Shown one piece after another: positions 1,089 through 6,094 of a DNA stretch of 6,847 bases; the stretch's first letter is position 1, and the number at the start of each line of letters is the position of its first letter. Where the stretch lies: IMG/VR virus record IMGVR_UViG_2563366891_000008, one strand, 5' to 3'. Both the position numbers and the translations under genes were made by a program. The stretch comes from a virus (lineage: Duplodnaviria > Heunggongvirae > Uroviricota > Caudoviricetes). Under the pieces are notes generated by a model that ran no database searches, had not been told where the DNA came from, and saw nothing but the letters and a program-made list of their open reading frames with translations.

Positions 1089-1244
1089 TTACTCCTCAGG
1101 TTCGTAAGCTGTGAAGACAGCGACCTCCGTCTGGCCGGTTCGGATTCGTACCTCGCAGAGGTCTTTCCTCGTTACCAGTGCCGTCACTATGACGGTTAAA
1201 CAGATGACGATCAGGGCGATTAACATCGCCTTTTGCTGCTTCAT
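1089..1244 (-). CDS. hok: Hok/Gef-family type I toxin (HokD/RelF-like), 51 aa
   Basis: Hand translation of the minus strand: MKQQKAMLIALIVICLTVIVTALVTRKDLCEVRIRTGQTEVAVFTAYEPEE. It has the Hok transmembrane segment and the conserved RKDLCEV...TGQTEVAVF...AYE core. Below the ORF-track length cutoff. SD-like AAGGAG upstream. Confidence 0.85.
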   Translation of the reverse strand: MKQQKAMLIALIVICLTVIVTALVTRKDLCEVRIRTGQTEVAVFTAYEPEE

Positions 1245-1868
1245 AGCCTGCTTCTCCTTGACCTTTCGGTCCGTAAGAGGCTAATCTCTATGTGTCGCAT
1301 AGATATGGCCTCAGATTAATGTTAAGCGTCTTGCAGGACGCGTAATGTTAACTGGGGCTTTTCTCTATCTGCCTTTTGGTGTTCATGCCTGAGACAGATA
1401 GCCTCAAGCACCCGCAGTCATTCTACTTAACTCCCGTTACCTCGCCAATATAAAATCAATCAGAAAGGCGATCCATAAGAACAACAGCAAGACAATAAAT
1501 TGCCATTACAGCTGCAATAGCCAGCGCACATTTGAGAACCAGCACGACAACCTCCTGTATTGGACGTACACCAGTCCTGATAAATATGAGGCTGTCTCAT
1601 CATTGATGAGATACAACTATTGGGTATAGTTTCTGTGATTTTGTTCTGTAGAAATGGAACACAACAACCAGTCACCACCAGCACTTCTTTAAATACGCCA
1701 AGTCCGACGCAAGCTAACCTTCTAGTCCGCTTTGAGCGAAAAGCAGACTGTCACGCGTTGAAGTTAATTGTATTACTTAGATAAACACTATCATTTTCCT
1801 GACGTTAAGTTGTATCTTTGATAGGATTAAAAAACGTATAGATAGCTTATGCTACTGAGGGAATAAAA

Positions 1869-2678
1869 ATGACGAAAATTAGTGAACGATGGAAGCACAA
1901 TGGCATTACTGAAGGTTATTGCAATATTTGTGGGAAATATGGCTTGCTCACAAAAGATCATGTTCCTCCAAAGTGCGCCATAACCTTAGGCCCTGTTTTG
2001 CAGAAAACAGTTAGCGAATTTTTTGGTATTCAGGAACCAGTTAAACCATTAAATGCTAAAAATGGCTCTTATTTCAGAACCATTTGCAGCCACTGTAACA
2101 ATAAGGTATTAGGTGGGCTCGATGTTGCAATTGAAAATGTAACAAAGTCCTTTAAAGAACAGTTAAGTCGATATATGAATGGTATGAATGTATATCCATT
2201 CATTAGAATACCTTTTGATAGCATATCTTTCACTAAGGCTATGATTGGGCACGTGCTATCAGCAACTTCAGTTGAAGATTGTAAAAAAGAACCCGTAGAT
2301 AGCCCCTTCTATACACCTTTAAAGGATTATGTTTTGGGTAAAAATTCAAGTTTTGAGGAAACTCATGATATTTACTACTGGTTTTACCCACACAGAATGC
2401 ACATATCCGCTCAAAGTGTAGCATTTATGAACGAAGGACATGTGGCATTTATTTGTGCTTTACATTTTTTTCCTATCGGTTTTATTATCACAATGAAAAA
2501 TGAAGGAACATACCCTGCCCACTCTACAAAATTAGAACTTGAAGATAAATTCCTTACATTTAATATGACCTCTATAAATTATGAGTATACGACATTTCCA
2601 TTTGTAAATCTTAAGGGAAACCAAATGTATGCGATAAGCAACGGTCATACTTGTGTGAGTTATCCAATAATTAAGTGA
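1869..2678 (+). CDS. 269-aa protein with N-terminal HNH-like (beta-beta-alpha-metal) zinc-finger nuclease motif and unknown C-terminal domain; AT-rich cargo gene, candidate defence/abortive-infection nuclease
   Basis: Long ORF with SD GAGGG 7 nt before ATG 1869. Motif C18-x2-C21 ... D30-H31-V-P-P ... C73-x2-C76-N-N-K79 fits the HNH pattern apart from a ~40-aa insertion. GC is visibly lower than the flanking phage genes (rough by-eye estimate high 30s vs mid 50s percent). Opposite strand to neighbouring phage genes. Confidence 0.7.
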   Translation: MTKISERWKHNGITEGYCNICGKYGLLTKDHVPPKCAITLGPVLQKTVSEFFGIQEPVKPLNAKNGSYFRTICSHCNNKVLGGLDVAIENVTKSFKEQLSRYMNGMNVYPFIRIPFDSISFTKAMIGHVLSATSVEDCKKEPVDSPFYTPLKDYVLGKNSSFEETHDIYYWFYPHRMHISAQSVAFMNEGHVAFICALHFFPIGFIITMKNEGTYPAHSTKLELEDKFLTFNMTSINYEYTTFPFVNLKGNQMYAISNGHTCVSYPIIK

Positions 2679-2731
2679 CGGCTAAATCATACAATCTACG
2701 CATGTTCACTTTCTACATATACCATCTATAA

Positions 2732-2757
2732 TGTCCGCTGTTGGCACAAAGCGGACA
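2732..2757. terminator. GC-rich hairpin between convergent genes; possible bidirectional terminator or cassette boundary
   Basis: 8-bp perfect stem tgtccgct (2732-2739) / agcggaca (2750-2757) with a 10-nt loop, lying between the stop of the + gene (2678) and the stop of the - gene (2825). No clean U-tract on either side. Confidence 0.35.
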
Positions 2758-2824
2758 ACCACGCTAGCTCTACCCTGTGCCACAAAATGTCAATTAATAC
2801 CTGAACTAATGCTCTTTAATTTCG

Positions 2825-3241
2825 TCACTTCAATAAATACCGAACATTTCCCTGATAAAATTCCAGTATGCGCTGCATAACTTCGCTCTGACGACACTCG
2901 CGACAAATTATATTCTGTCGTCTGTTGTAACGGCGTATTTCGCCATCTAGCAATGAATAAATCAGGTCAGGATCGCTCTTCTTTTTCACTGCCGCTCTCG
3001 ACATTTTTTTGCGGGCTTTTCCCCAGTCCTTACGAGCCTGCTCCGAAGGAAATATTCCATGTCCTGAACTATATATTGCGCCACTAACTACCAGCTCTTT
3101 CGCCAGAACTTCTATCAGATGTCTCGTAGCCCCGGTTTCATTTTCCAGTTGTTTACGCGTTTTTCGCCCATCTCTGCGTACCAGTTCCACAATGCGCGCC
3201 TTCACTTCTTCCCGCAGTTCGGGAGTAAAAACTTTTGCCAC
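2825..3241 (-). CDS. 138-aa basic protein with HTH-like N-terminal region and C-terminal CxxC; function unknown
   Basis: ORF with GTG start at 3241..3239 preceded by strong SD AGGAGG (4-5 nt spacing). Immediately downstream of the O-like gene in the same operon. The 3' end is more AT-rich than the 5' end. Confidence 0.7.
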   Translation of the reverse strand: MAKVFTPELREEVKARIVELVRRDGRKTRKQLENETGATRHLIEVLAKELVVSGAIYSSGHGIFPSEQARKDWGKARKKMSRAAVKKKSDPDLIYSLLDGEIRRYNRRQNIICRECRQSEVMQRILEFYQGNVRYLLK

Positions 3242-3278
3242 AAGCCCTCCTGAAAATTACCCCATGACCTGAAATCTG

Positions 3279-4349
3279 TTACCCTCTGAATCCCGGCGGA
3301 ATTTCGGTGTCCGGTTCAGAAATATGATTAACACAACGCTGGTTGTTCGTGCCGCTTACCGGGAGCAACCAGGGGTTTTCAAAATTCCGGTCCGGTCCAA
3401 AAAACGTCGTCGCTCGCTGAACAAATTCCGTTCCCGTTTTCCCGGTAGCAGCCAGGTATCTTGTGTAACGCCTCACACCATCCAGCATGGCCTCTGGTGG
3501 CACCCCCTCGCGTAATCTGGCCTTCCAGGCACTGAAAGCGGATTTTTTCGGGTTTGCCCCGGCTCGTAACGGGTATTCCCGCCAGACCTGTTCGAACACA
3601 TCCGGATAATCCACTCGTCCCACAGGCTGCCCGATGTTTTCCGGGACTACCCGATCGGCTTCCCGCTGAATGGCGGAATCGGCTTCAGGCTGCTGCAGTT
3701 GGTGTGATTGCTCCGACCCTGCGGTCATCGCCTGCTGCACAGCGCCCGAATCGGCTTTCAGCGCATACGCTGAATCGGCTTCCGGTGTCGTGCCTGCGGG
3801 CTGGCCAGGAGTGACGGTCTGAACATCCCCTACATGGTTCGTGGCGTTTTTTACGCCATGGACCATAGTGTTTTGATCTTCTTTATCTGTATCTCTATCT
3901 GTATCTTTATCTGTCGTGACTCGTCGTGACATGTGCGTGACATTTCGTGACGCGCCGTGACAATCGCCATTTTGTTCCCGCTTTCTTTCCCTCTCACGCT
4001 GCGCCCTCTTGCGCTCTGCCGGAGATTTTGCGGTTTGCGAAATATTGCCGTTGTCCTCTTTAAGCACCTGGCGTTTTTCCCATCCAGTGATTAAATCACC
4101 ATCAAGTACCCGCCCCTGCATCGTCTGCAAAATTGAATCAATTACCTCTTCTGTCACGTCGAGCGCACTTGCCAAATCTTCTGTCGTGACATCAATGTGA
4201 CCTCGCGTGACATTTCGTGACGCGCTCACCAGGAGGTGGATATACACTGCCATCACTGTTGCAATTGGTTGCCCTGACACCCTGGCAATTGTTCGCCACT
4301 TAGGGTCATTTGGCATGTCATGCCATAATCTGAGCCAGGCGTTAGCCAT
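3279..4349 (-). CDS. Phage replication initiator (lambda O-like functional analogue; possibly YdaU-like) carrying internal origin iterons
   Basis: Long ORF; probable start ATG 4349..4347 with SD GAGGTGAG (the track's 4355 is an upstream GTG). Sits after the cro/cII-like genes. Contains two clusters of 10-bp-periodic CGTGAC repeats plus AT-rich hexamer repeats, as the lambda ori lies inside O. Confidence 0.8.
   Translation of the reverse strand: MANAWLRLWHDMPNDPKWRTIARVSGQPIATVMAVYIHLLVSASRNVTRGHIDVTTEDLASALDVTEEVIDSILQTMQGRVLDGDLITGWEKRQVLKEDNGNISQTAKSPAERKRAQRERERKREQNGDCHGASRNVTHMSRRVTTDKDTDRDTDKEDQNTMVHGVKNATNHVGDVQTVTPGQPAGTTPEADSAYALKADSGAVQQAMTAGSEQSHQLQQPEADSAIQREADRVVPENIGQPVGRVDYPDVFEQVWREYPLRAGANPKKSAFSAWKARLREGVPPEAMLDGVRRYTRYLAATGKTGTEFVQRATTFFGPDRNFENPWLLPVSGTNNQRCVNHISEPDTEIPPGFRG
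3884..3913. repeat. Tandem hexamer repeat TATCTN x5 (AT-rich block adjacent to iterons)
   Basis: tatctg tatctc tatctg tatctt tatctg read directly from the sequence; encodes a TDKDTDRDTDK linker in the O-like protein. Confidence 0.7.
3911..3961. repeat. Putative origin iterons, cluster 1: five direct repeats of CGTGAC at 10-11 bp spacing
   Basis: CGTGAC at 3915, 3925, 3936, 3946 and 3956. Helical-turn periodicity, inside the initiator gene. Confidence 0.65.
4181..4225. repeat. Putative origin iterons, cluster 2: four (C)GTGAC repeats at ~10 bp spacing, including an exact 21-bp copy of cluster 1
   Basis: (C)GTGAC at 4185, 4196, 4206 and 4216. The 21-mer gcgtgacatttcgtgacgcgc is identical at 3935-3955 and 4205-4225. 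An inverted copy GTCACG lies at 4153-4158. Confidence 0.6.
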
Positions 4350-4420
4350 ACTCACCTCTTCTGATACCGAATCTTTTTACTCACGAGTTGCCGGAAGCGA
4401 TTCGATATGGCTATTGTCAG

Positions 4421-4846
4421 TCAATGTACTGCCACAGCATTTCCTGCCGGGCCACCACGGTTCATCTGATTGAAACCGGCGATTGCCACTGCGACAAAAT
4501 CATCAGCGTCTCTCACCAGTCGCTCCCGCGTCTCCACCAGCTCCCGAAAATAAGCTGAACTGTGGCTGCGCATTCTGGCCACCAGCAAAGGTGGCATTGC
4601 CTTTTCGATCGCTGGTAACAACGCCTGAATTTTTTCAACTGCATCAGGGGTGTCTTTCTCTACCCAGCGGAAAATTTTCTGGGTATTGCGAGCCAGGGCT
4701 TCCGGATGGCTGTCGTCATACAGTTCCGGGAACGTCATTCCCAGCTCGAAATACGCTTTGGTAATTTTCGCAGCCGGTACTTTTTCGCCGTCCGGATGCG
4801 CCCAGGCATTCATCGCCATGCGGATGTGTTCATGCTTGATTTTCAT
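4421..4846 (-). CDS. YdaT-like protein (CII-like functional analogue of Rac-type prophages), 141 aa
   Basis: Start ATG 4846..4844 with SD GGGGGG; protein begins MKIKHEHIRMAMNAW.... The ORF-track start at 4918 is an upstream in-frame ATG without SD. Overlaps the end of the cro-like gene by 17 nt. Family assignment is from memory. Confidence 0.7.
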   Translation of the reverse strand: MKIKHEHIRMAMNAWAHPDGEKVPAAKITKAYFELGMTFPELYDDSHPEALARNTQKIFRWVEKDTPDAVEKIQALLPAIEKAMPPLLVARMRSHSSAYFRELVETRERLVRDADDFVAVAIAGFNQMNRGGPAGNAVAVH

Positions 4847-5072
4847 GAATCCCCCCTTGGTTAGAAGGCGGATTATGATCAGAACCGGGAATGACAACCG
4901 TCGGTATGTGTAACTCATATTTGAGCGCCCCGGCAGTGACTGCCTGAATTAGCAACGCCCATTTCCACGGAACCTCTTCCCCCCACATGCTGACTGTGGT
5001 TTTTGACGTTCCTAGAGCTGCGGCTGTTTTAACAACTCCGCCAAAATAGCCTAATACTTCTGATTTTTTCAT
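4830..5072 (-). CDS. Cro-like HTH regulator (YdaS-like), 80 aa
   Basis: Start ATG 5072..5070 with SD GGAG at 6-nt spacing. HTH signature VKTAAALGTSKTTVSMW. Divergent from the CI-like gene. Confidence 0.75.
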   Translation of the reverse strand: MKKSEVLGYFGGVVKTAAALGTSKTTVSMWGEEVPWKWALLIQAVTAGALKYELHIPTVVIPGSDHNPPSNQGGIHENQA

Positions 5073-5100
5073 GAGTCGCTCCATAAAACTGAACGTCAAA

Positions 5101-5163
5101 AGTTTAATAATCAAAACCAAAGAAAGTCAAGAAACAAAACCATCTGTGTTTTAAAATCAAAAC
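5101..5163. promoter_or_regulatory. OR-like operator region with divergent promoters (pR on the minus strand, pRM-like on the plus strand)
   Basis: Three GTTTT-N6-AAAAC-type sites at 23-bp spacing: 5102-5117 gtttaataatcaaaac, 5125-5140 (degenerate) and 5148-5163 gttttaaaatcaaaac. Candidate pR on the minus strand: -35 TTGACT (5130..5125), 18-bp spacer, -10 TAAACT (5106..5101). Candidate pRM: -10 TAAAAT (5152-5157), 6 nt before the cI ATG, implying a leaderless transcript. Confidence 0.5.
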
Positions 5164-5802
5164 ATGAGCAAGCAAACTATATCTGAACGCATAACCCAAC
5201 GTATGCATGCGCTAAACCTGAAAGGCAAAGACCTTGTCAATGGCACTGGCGCATCAAAAGGCTCCGTAAGTCAATGGATGAACGGTGGAGGAGCGCCGTC
5301 CTCGCGTTACATAAGTTCACTGGCAAAAATATTGAAAGTAAACGAAAATTGGCTTCTTAATGGAGGAGAGTTAAATACAGGTGATTCGCTTGATCTATCT
5401 TTACCGCCGATAAAAACGGTTCCGCTACTATCACTTCAGCAGGCAGCAAGCTGGAGTGATTATATGAAAAATTCCTCAATAACCTCTTGTGTGCAGCTTG
5501 TCGGAGAAATCCCGGTCAATACCTTTGCAGTTGTTCTAGAGAGTGACAGTATGTCAACATCTGGTGGGGGAGTTTCCATCCCAAATGGTTCAACAGTTTT
5601 TGTTGATCCCGATCGAACCGTACAACCAGGAAATATTGTCCTTGCCTTACCCAAAGGGACCACAACACCTGTCATTCGTAAACTGGAGATAGAAGGGCCG
5701 GATATTCTTTTAGTCCCCACGAATCCTCGCTACCCTTCAATTATGCTGGATGATCTATCTTGCATATTGGGCGTATGCTTTAAAATTCAACAAGATATTT
5801 AA
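5164..5802 (+). CDS. Lambda CI-type immunity repressor (N-terminal XRE-type HTH, C-terminal S24/LexA-like autocleavage domain), 212 aa
   Basis: HTH segment GASKGSVSQWMNG. C-terminal ...SDSMS...VFVDPDRTVQPGNIV...VIRKLE...LVPTNPRYPSI... parallels lambda CI GDSM...VDPEQAVEPGDF...FKKL...LNPQYP (Ser/Lys dyad). Divergent from the cro-like gene. Confidence 0.9.
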   Translation: MSKQTISERITQRMHALNLKGKDLVNGTGASKGSVSQWMNGGGAPSSRYISSLAKILKVNENWLLNGGELNTGDSLDLSLPPIKTVPLLSLQQAASWSDYMKNSSITSCVQLVGEIPVNTFAVVLESDSMSTSGGGVSIPNGSTVFVDPDRTVQPGNIVLALPKGTTTPVIRKLEIEGPDILLVPTNPRYPSIMLDDLSCILGVCFKIQQDI

Positions 5803-5865
5803 CCAACCTCATCTATTTGATTAACTGTATGCCATCGTGGTGATGGCTTAACAGCTGCCTGCTTA

Positions 5866-5914
5866 AAATGTTTTGATAAAAAAACATTGACCTGAAAAGT
5901 TCGTTTTTCTAAAC
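5866..5914 (+). promoter_or_regulatory. pL-like promoter with overlapping OL-like operator
   Basis: -35 TTGACC (5886-5891), 17-bp spacer, -10 TAAACT (5909-5914). Operator-type palindrome AATGTTTT-gataaa-AAAACATT (5866-5887), with the GTTTT-N6-AAAAC core at 5869-5884, overlaps the -35. Confidence 0.55.
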
Positions 5915-6094
5915 TCCATTCATTCCCTCACCCCATCCTACAGAATGCAGGGCAATACTTCGAGTTACCAGGCAGTGGTCAGGGGTTAAGTAGCCAGCCC
6001 GAGGCGTAAGAACATGACGGCAGGGTTCAACTTTAATAACTATGCAGCAGGTTTTTGTTCCGCTACCCCGGCGTTAAGGGGAAATGAGGTCAGC

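Follow-up and report, generated by a model that had tools for sequence, protein, structure and literature searches.

The stretch of DNA considered here, called the window throughout, comprises 6,847 nucleotides of the virus record IMGVR_UViG_2563366891_000008. Its source is a Rac/Qin-like lambdoid prophage of Escherichia coli, of which the window covers the immunity, replication and early-right region; the prophage of strain 120899 matches the whole window at 95% identity. Between the replication genes and a hok toxin gene lies a mobile cassette of about 1 kb with one open reading frame (ORF) of 269 aa, located at 1869–2678 on the plus strand. The product of this ORF, RefSeq protein WP_000161640.1 (PHROG 21495), has an N-terminal domain with residues typical of HNH nucleases and a C-terminal domain of no recognisable family; it is discussed below as a possible single-protein nuclease directed against invading DNA.

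The genes around the cassette are arranged on the minus strand. Reading leftwards, their order is a cro/DicC-like gene, a YdaT-family gene (4421–4918), a replisome-organiser (O-like) gene (3279–4355), a DUF977 gene (2825–3241), the cassette region, sok, hokD, a small gene named ‘hypothetical’ or ‘Rem’ in related records and the DUF968/YdfU gene. The YdaT-family and O-like genes were recognised as ORFs, as was the cI-like repressor gene at 5164–5802 on the plus strand, which also appears in the RefSeq locus. The DUF977 (YdaW/LygF-like) gene, matched by Pfam DUF977 with E = 2.7e-28, is the last gene of the replication block and, on the right of the cargo slot, its conserved flank. The conserved flank on the left is the type I toxin gene hokD (1089–1244), identified as an ORF and by the hokD annotation of the 95%-identical RefSeq locus. 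The sok antitoxin RNA and the hok regulatory region occupy positions 1242–1413 (minus strand) and scored 106.7 bits with Rfam model RF01794 (gathering score 59; E = 3.4e-24). A variable spacer at 1433–1748, delimited by homology breakpoints, is 96% identical to phages Tritos and Evi and is absent from phage vB_EcoS-813R8.

The 3′ end of this spacer is a hairpin, GTCCGCTTT-GAGCGA-AAAGCAGAC, found at 1725–1748 by a repeat search and having a 9-bp stem with one mismatch. It is followed by the conserved upstream regulatory region of the cassette (1783–1868, plus strand), the cargo ORF and a second, right hairpin, GTCCGCTGT-TGGCAC-AAAGCGGAC, at 2733–2756, which lacks a U-tract and forms the exact 3′ end of the cassette. 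Within the ORF, the N-terminal HNH-like zinc-finger domain (approximately aa 12–105) is encoded at 1902–2183 and was delimited by invariant alignment columns, HNH_5 matches and predicted secondary structure. The C-terminal domain (approximately aa 106–269) is encoded at 2184–2675; it is of mixed alpha/beta type and contains the invariant residues G127-H128, W171, P202 and P244.

The initial annotation had described the ORF as an AT-rich gene with its own Shine–Dalgarno sequence, lying antisense to the early operon between the replication genes and hok, and the analysis agrees with it in each respect. The ORF begins with ATG, and the sequence GAGGG at 1857–1861 is situated 7 nt before the start codon. 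The DUF977, O-like and YdaT genes are all on the minus strand, with hokD/sok alongside. The deviation in composition, checked by windowed GC content and by GC content at third codon positions (GC3), is real. The ORF has a GC of 0.349 and a GC3 of 0.296, versus 0.460 and 0.417 for the DUF977 gene, 0.537 and 0.532 for the O-like gene, 0.528 and 0.556 for the YdaT-family gene and 0.519 and 0.673 for hokD. In a sliding window, GC is 0.33–0.37 across 1650–2850 and 0.49–0.57 on either side.

The ORF is a real gene under purifying selection. The ratio of nonsynonymous to synonymous substitution rates (dN/dS) is 0.14 when calculated against a copy with 94.8% identity over the ORF, and 0.10 against one with 82% identity; exactly the same protein is present on at least 1,000 contigs, and an exhaustive profile search retrieved 1,785 representative clusters (50% identity) at E <= 1e-3, of which 347 were found at E <= 1e-30. 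Nearly all the cluster representatives are 260–290 aa long. In public records the members are named ‘hypothetical protein’, ‘chaperonin’ or ‘metal-binding protein’. The analyses of this protein yielded no evidence backing the ‘chaperonin’ label, which seems to be a propagated mis-annotation.

The limits of the cassette follow from its occurrence in unrelated replicons. The region 1690–2830, given for it by the initial annotation, was not borne out. In comparison with the cassette-free lambdoid phage vB_EcoS-813R8, which is homologous to the window at 1–1432 and 2842–6084, the differing region is 1433–2841; in place of these 1,409 bp, 813R8 has about 1.6 kb, including four small same-strand genes among other annotated ORFs. 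The P2-like Peduovirus pro147 shares a 974-bp segment, window 1783–2756, at 94.5% identity, and the flanks on both sides of it are unrelated. The pro147 copy has the tail sheath gene on one side and the tail fibre genes on the other, which is the position of the P2 Z/fun locus. Plasmid pC21A02010 contains window positions 1725–2756 at 99.7% identity, with an identical ORF. In the lambdoid, P2-like and plasmid contexts alike, similarity ends directly after the right hairpin, and the stem sequence of this hairpin is retained downstream of a Pectobacterium copy that has 82% nucleotide identity. On the left side, plasmid homology starts within the hairpin, while homology to Tritos and Evi (1435–1748) stops at its 3′ edge. 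The mobile unit is thus a hairpin-ended segment of about 1 kb extending from 1725 or 1783 to 2756. Of 5,426 complete E. coli genomes, 134 (about 2.5%) contain at least 80% of segment 1690–2830, and the full hokD–cassette–DUF977 arrangement was found in 62 complete E. coli genomes.

The two 24-nt hairpins are related to each other, sharing the pattern GTCCGCTNT-N6-ANAGC[G/A]GAC, and bracket the cassette at the homology breakpoints. Two identities considered for them were rejected: neither is followed by a T-run (U-tract) that an intrinsic terminator would have, and at 24 nt they are far too short for attC sites. A search of the window for an integron cassette found no repeat of attC length, only the 24-nt hairpins.

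The noncoding parts of the cassette are short, comprising 86 nt upstream and 78 nt downstream of the ORF. The upstream part is the same in the lambdoid and P2-like copies at 82 of 86 positions; these four differences (4.7%) compare with a divergence of about 16% at the synonymous sites of the ORF, which suggests that the upstream region is constrained and probably regulatory. A scan of 1783–1868 for sigma-70 promoters gave no site above threshold; weak sigma-70-like hexamers, CTGACG-17-TAGGAT (8/12), can be discerned there by eye. Conservation of the 78-nt tail in the P2 copy is 91%. One sigma-70-like sequence, TTCACT-16-TATAAT (10/12), is located in it at 2705–2732 on the plus strand, just ahead of the right hairpin, and another (9/12) at 2715–2686 on the minus strand is aimed back into the 3′ end of the ORF. 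Judging by these motifs, a small sense or antisense transcript from the cassette tail is conceivable.

The site of the cassette, between hokD/sok and DUF977, holds different genes in different prophages. In 813R8 the slot contains the four small genes mentioned above; HannyBb has different small genes there, and further alleles have a DUF7167 gene plus hypothetical genes. In phage Tritos (OV696610) it is filled with a single opposite-strand gene of 444 aa (4112–5446 on the plus strand of the extracted locus), the product of which matches the PADLOC candidate PDC-S15 (E = 1.2e-98) and Pfam family FRG. The comparison with related prophages lacking the insert, which the initial annotation had suggested, shows relatives that lack the cassette and hold alternative cargo. 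At the hokD/DUF977 junction, Rac/Qin-like prophages thus exchange one cargo for another. As in a moron, the gene is an extra one of deviant composition between variably filled flanks.

Several other features of this junction were observed. In E. coli FDAARGOS_772 the slot holds a gene annotated as epoxyqueuosine reductase QueH (1982–2647 of its locus), which is on the minus strand, the same as the early operon, and represents an unusual cargo for this position. In Tritos, an ImmA/IrrE gene and a hypothetical gene are inserted on the other side of hokD. The annotation ‘HNH endonuclease’ in HannyBb is irrelevant to the slot, as it belongs to the DUF968/YdfU gene outside it. The part of the spacer shared with Tritos and Evi includes a hydrophobic ORF of 29 aa, MLVLKCALAIAAVMAIYCLAVVLMDRLSD, at 1456–1545 (minus strand), with a GTG start and AGGAGG 5 nt upstream; it is unannotated in the RefSeq locus, has no Pfam match and, by its sequence, resembles a type I toxin or a small peptide of the membrane. 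A Cys-rich ORF of 74 aa at 1460–1684 (minus strand) overlaps the spacer as well, and in phage 813R8 a plus-strand ORF at a roughly matching position between hok and the slot bears the name ‘hornerin’. Both of these look like spurious calls.

The N-terminal part of the protein was claimed to contain the motif C18-x2-C21…D30-H31-V-P-P…C73-x2-C76-N77 of a zinc-finger HNH nuclease. This motif is present, and its residues are invariant or nearly so across the homologues. An alignment of 89 diverse members, which are 19–45% identical to the window protein, shows the following residues to be invariant: C18, C21, H31, C73, C76, N77, D85, G127, H128, W171, P202 and P244, and D30, P33 and P34 are conserved in at least 90% of the members. 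The four invariant cysteines C18, C21, C73 and C76 are the ligands of a putative Cys4 zinc site, and D30-H31 together with N77 are proposed as catalytic or metal-binding residues.

Profile comparisons of the individual members point in the same direction. Matches to HNH_5 (PF14279) were found at E <= 0.1 in 51 of the 89 members when scanned individually, the best having E = 2.3e-6. Weak matches to Endonuclease_7 occur in six members (best E = 6.5e-4), and any other Pfam family is seen in two members at most. Positions 1–22 of the HNH_5 profile cover the CxxC…DH segment and positions 13–54 the CxxCN helix segment, in the correct order. Between the DH strand and the CxxCN helix the family has a specific insert of about 35–40 aa, which divides the two halves of the motif and accounts for the lack of a single strong HNH_5 match. 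The AlphaFold2 model, which is of high confidence (predicted local distance difference test score 86, predicted template modelling score 0.88), comprises a strand at residues 24–32 carrying D30-H31, a strand at residues 67–73 ending at C73 and a helix at residues 74–103 starting with C76-N77. This modelled strand–strand–helix order is consistent with a zinc-braced beta–beta–alpha-metal nuclease.

Other results do not confirm this assignment. The window protein itself has only a non-significant HNH_5 match at aa 18–35 (11.6 bits, E = 0.29), and where bit scores are given for other members they are 13–19 bits, under the Pfam gathering score of 27.5. A Foldseek search of the PDB with the model yielded nothing below E = 0.2 and retrieved no HNH structure, and a profile of the N-terminal domain had no match among PDB sequences. 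Other searches were similarly unproductive: the full-length profile found only a chance match among solved structures (E = 1.2), the only match in a viral structure library was an uncharacterised phage protein of 266 aa, and hhalign comparison with a manually entered sequence of T4 endonuclease VII gave a probability of 1.9% over 10 columns covering the first CxxC only. The zinc-finger HNH claim thus holds at the level of the family, in its invariant residues and recurrent HNH_5 matches, and not at the level of a significant match or a retrieved HNH fold for the window protein. On the grounds of residue conservation and recurrent profile matches the N-terminal domain can be described as ‘HNH_5-like’, with a predicted fold that is consistent with this.

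The rest of the protein was said to match nothing recognisable, and the same was found here: the C-terminal part, about 165 aa, has no relative in Pfam, NCBIfam or the PDB and gave no match to SRA, PUA, EVE or another solved fold. For the whole protein, NCBIfam gave no match, Pfam gave only sub-threshold matches to HNH_5 and zf-TFIIIC, and PHROGs assigned it to phrog_21495, a family of unknown function (E = 1.9e-195). No family of PADLOC 2.0.0 was matched at E <= 10, so that the protein corresponds to none of the defence models of that collection. The extensions of longer members were considered as domain fusions and rejected, as they are Arg/Pro-rich translations of upstream DNA from mis-called starts; a weak EAD2 match in one member was not reproduced in ten longer members that were re-scanned. 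A literature search retrieved no mention of WP_000161640 or A0A0L7ACS6, which does not exclude a prior description, and no matching protein or accession was found in the texts of the P2/P4, DefensePredictor, integron and domain-centric defence papers or in the DefensePredictor supplements. HNH nucleases are known as prophage defence cargo; no description appears to exist of the present family, of its split HNH finger, of its C-terminal domain or of its behaviour as a cassette.

Homologues with 31–84% identity that could be placed on longer contigs occur in various mobile elements. In Serratia fonticola, a P4-like satellite has this gene, and no other, in the interval from its integrase gene to psu/delta. 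The P4 int–psu interval is the main defence hotspot of these satellites (PMC9122126; PMC13586616), and a hotspot of defence and accessory genes has also been described inside the P2 tail genes in a 2026 survey (PMC13586616). The Plesiomonas shigelloides homologue (CP027852) lies in an integron-like array (locus L008, 1–16813) containing 18 attC-like repeats of about 128 nt with a spacing of 600–1700 bp. Copies of the repeat are located directly on either side of the gene, which is on the strand opposite to most other cassettes; the latter include genes for HEPN_AbiU2, SduA_C (Shedu), PLD/NgoFVII-like nuclease, Fic and NUDIX proteins. A Vibrio cholerae homologue is encoded on a 969-bp contig, recovered from 12 samples, with a VCR-like attC at its end. 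The integron-cassette form is seen for the Plesiomonas and V. cholerae homologues and not for the window.

Other homologues are situated at the end of a filamentous prophage (Vibrio), next to the terminase genes of a lambda-like prophage and on the opposite strand (Enterobacter), inside the head module of a Mu-like prophage on the same strand (a metagenome read-run assembly) and in islands. The Pseudomonas island, flanked by serine recombinase genes, is inserted in an FKBP gene; in Pectobacterium the gene is found beside ParE/RelB in an island with integrase, AlpA and primase; the Motilimonas and Photobacterium homologues belong to variable chromosomal islands. A scan of species-representative genomes detected 58 loci, mostly in Gammaproteobacteria, along with members of about 30% identity in Cyanobacteria, Herbaspirillum, Candidatus Electronema and one Cloacimonadota genome.

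The neighbours of the gene were compared by clustering all ORFs up to 3.5 kb on each side at 45 loci from 31 genera. No conserved partner gene was detected among them: only the gene itself recurs throughout, from which it follows that it works without a fixed partner. The commonest neighbour family, a small serine recombinase, is present at seven of the 45 loci. The 90 nearest ORFs include, in raw counts, two GajA-type genes (best E = 1.2e-188), two oligonucleotide cyclase/SMODS genes, one AbiTii gene and one type I restriction–modification specificity subunit gene, as well as three resolvases, two integrases and two SRAP proteins. Mobile-element and defence genes are thus found among its neighbours. 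In Raoultella, Tenebrionibacter and Serratia a conserved two-gene module occurs beside the HNH-family gene, directly adjoining it in two of the three cases; the module encodes an SMODS-type nucleotidyltransferase of 259 aa together with a protein of 169–180 aa that looks membrane-associated by eye (loci L029 6908–8190, L030 6904–8222 and L032 3512–4806).

The initial annotation read the gene as a defence or abortive-infection nuclease or moron, possibly a single-gene system. The description as a single-gene cargo cassette, compositionally foreign and on the opposite strand, is borne out by the GC values, the shared segments and the lack of a partner. The defence part of this reading is favoured by context, namely the P2/P4 hotspots, the integrons, the Gabija, CBASS-type, AbiU2 and Shedu neighbours and the replacement by PDC-S15 in the same slot; as to function, it amounts to a proposal. 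A foreign single gene on the opposite strand, with a private conserved upstream region, under purifying selection, found in hotspots and replaced by PDC-S15 in the same slot, has the profile of a defence gene. Since, in addition, the HNH-type catalytic residues are invariant, a nuclease directed at invading DNA would be the simplest model. It seems somewhat probable that the prophage expresses the protein as a single-component nuclease acting against superinfecting phages or other invading DNA.

The proposed mechanism would be as follows. A one-gene ‘moron’ cassette of about 1 kb, horizontally mobile, is lodged in the variable lambdoid slot. The N-terminal Cys4-zinc HNH module would cut DNA by means of D30-H31 and N77, and the C-terminal domain would supply specificity or a trigger, responding either to a feature of foreign DNA, for example base modification, or to a phage-induced signal. 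In the former case, the protein would act in a type IV-like manner, as McrA does; in the latter, it would be an abortive-infection-like nuclease. Host DNA would be spared without a partner methylase or immunity gene. As no methyltransferase, antitoxin or immunity partner travels with the gene and at least 1,000 contigs stably carry the exact protein, discrimination between self and non-self should reside inside the protein, most plausibly in its C-terminal part. The modification-dependent, type IV-like variant specifically is considered unlikely. It is possible, and suggested here tentatively, that the protein is the founding member of an undescribed family of single-protein immune nucleases, in which a split HNH finger would be combined with a sensor domain of a new fold, with no need for a partner, and which would travel as a hairpin-ended cassette. 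The family so understood, in which at least 1,785 clusters (50% identity) were counted, would reach from Gammaproteobacteria as far as Cyanobacteria and be carried by lambdoid, P2-like, Mu-like and filamentous prophages, P4 satellites, plasmids and integrons.

Among the other explanations, the one that survives best is a different role in conflict or addiction, either as a barrier against plasmids and transformation or as a stabilising toxin with post-segregational action. The gene adjoins hok/sok here and ParE/RelB in Pectobacterium, and the plasmid copy has relBE in its vicinity; moreover, HNH nucleases are often toxins. Its strand in the Plesiomonas array, opposite to that of most ORFs, may be added, as reversed orientation is common for toxin–antitoxin cassettes in integron arrays. 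However, no adjacent antitoxin or immunity ORF is conserved at the 45 loci, the noncoding parts of the cassette comprise only 86 and 78 nt, and stable carriage of the exact protein on at least 1,000 contigs speaks against unchecked toxicity. Such a role is rather improbable.

A nuclease serving the life cycle of its carrier, whether a terminase-associated HNH protein, an endonuclease VII-like resolvase or a degrader of host DNA, can be envisaged from the Cys4/DH/N pattern, which by eye resembles that of T4 endonuclease VII, from the weak Endonuclease_7 matches in six of the 89 members and from the homologues that adjoin terminase genes or lie in a Mu-like head module on the same strand. Yet close relatives dispense with the gene, and it is found in a plasmid, integron cassettes, the P4 satellite hotspot and at the end of a filamentous phage, which have no such packaging or lytic cycle. 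Its direction of transcription opposes the early operon, the prophage already has RusA and the hhalign probability with endonuclease VII is as low as 1.9%. The chance of this explanation being right is small.

Equally small is the chance that the protein is no nuclease but binds metal through a zinc ribbon or treble clef and has a regulatory or some other function, in which case the HNH likeness would be superficial. A structural zinc site would not need H31 and N77 to be invariant, and D30 nearly so, at 19–45% identity. No Pfam family recurs nearly as often as HNH_5, of which both profile halves are matched in order, and the database names that might suggest another role come without supporting evidence.

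A free-standing HNH homing endonuclease, which would cut a cognate site in endonuclease-free genomes and be copied in by repair, was named by the initial annotation as the main alternative and is very improbable: it would agree with the HNH-type motif, the sporadic presence in related phages and in 134 of 5,426 E. coli genomes and the single, partner-free gene, but near-identical cassettes occupy such unrelated contexts as a lambdoid early region, a P2 tail region and a plasmid, homologues in P4 satellites, integron cassettes, filamentous and Mu-like prophages and islands have no common target gene, cassette-free relatives hold alternative cargo instead of an empty intact site, Pfam detects no NUMOD, IENR1, AP2, HTH or other homing DNA-binding module in the protein and its 89 relatives, and the location on the opposite strand, the low GC and the conservation upstream are in keeping with a moron expressed in the lysogen.

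The proposed anti-invader nuclease can be compared with several known systems. With the HNH_5 and Cys4 His-Me finger nucleases, such as T4 endonuclease VII and McrA-type enzymes, it shares the CxxC…D-H…CxxC-N pattern and the predicted strand–strand–helix core. It differs from them in the 35–40 aa insert dividing the motif, in scores that, where given, are all below the gathering score and in carrying a fused C-terminal domain that the described HNH families lack; for T4 endonuclease VII (PF02945), no significant sequence, profile or structural link was found. McrA of prophage e14 combines an HNH nuclease and a further domain in one chain of about 270 aa and has neither a methyltransferase nor an immunity gene as a partner. 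The window protein resembles McrA and other single-chain, modification-dependent type IV HNH enzymes in being a single, partner-free, prophage-borne chain of similar size; unlike McrA, it has the HNH-like domain at the N-terminus, so that the domain order is reversed, and the two share no sequence similarity.

Morons of lambdoid phages are additional genes that have transcription signals of their own and are expressed from the prophage. The present gene is like them in being an extra gene between conserved modules with deviant composition, opposite strand, a private upstream region and a 3′ hairpin. In contrast to the morons, its promoter and terminator are not canonical, and the cassette is shared with non-lambdoid elements and takes the form of an integron cassette in Vibrionaceae-type hosts. 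The single-gene cargo of P2/P4 hotspots (the DUF4238 system, Toga and Reve) and PDC-S15 are similar in that a lone gene occupies the P2 tail region, the P4 int–psu interval or the lambdoid slot; the window protein, however, belongs to a different family, which is not among the systems in the text of PMC9122126 or PMC13586616.

As the family occurs in known defence-gene hotspots of many mobile elements, the gene is, judging by sequence and context, a good candidate for a new single-protein anti-phage system. It is present in about 2.5% of complete E. coli genomes, hidden under misleading names such as ‘chaperonin’. The cassette family moves among at least six classes of mobile elements, including integron arrays, which makes it a useful marker of the shuffling of defence cargo. 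If the protein protects against phages, a compact, partner-free nuclease system of 269 aa would be added to the defence repertoire, and its C-terminal recognition domain, which has no known fold, would pose the question of how a lone HNH nuclease spares its host.

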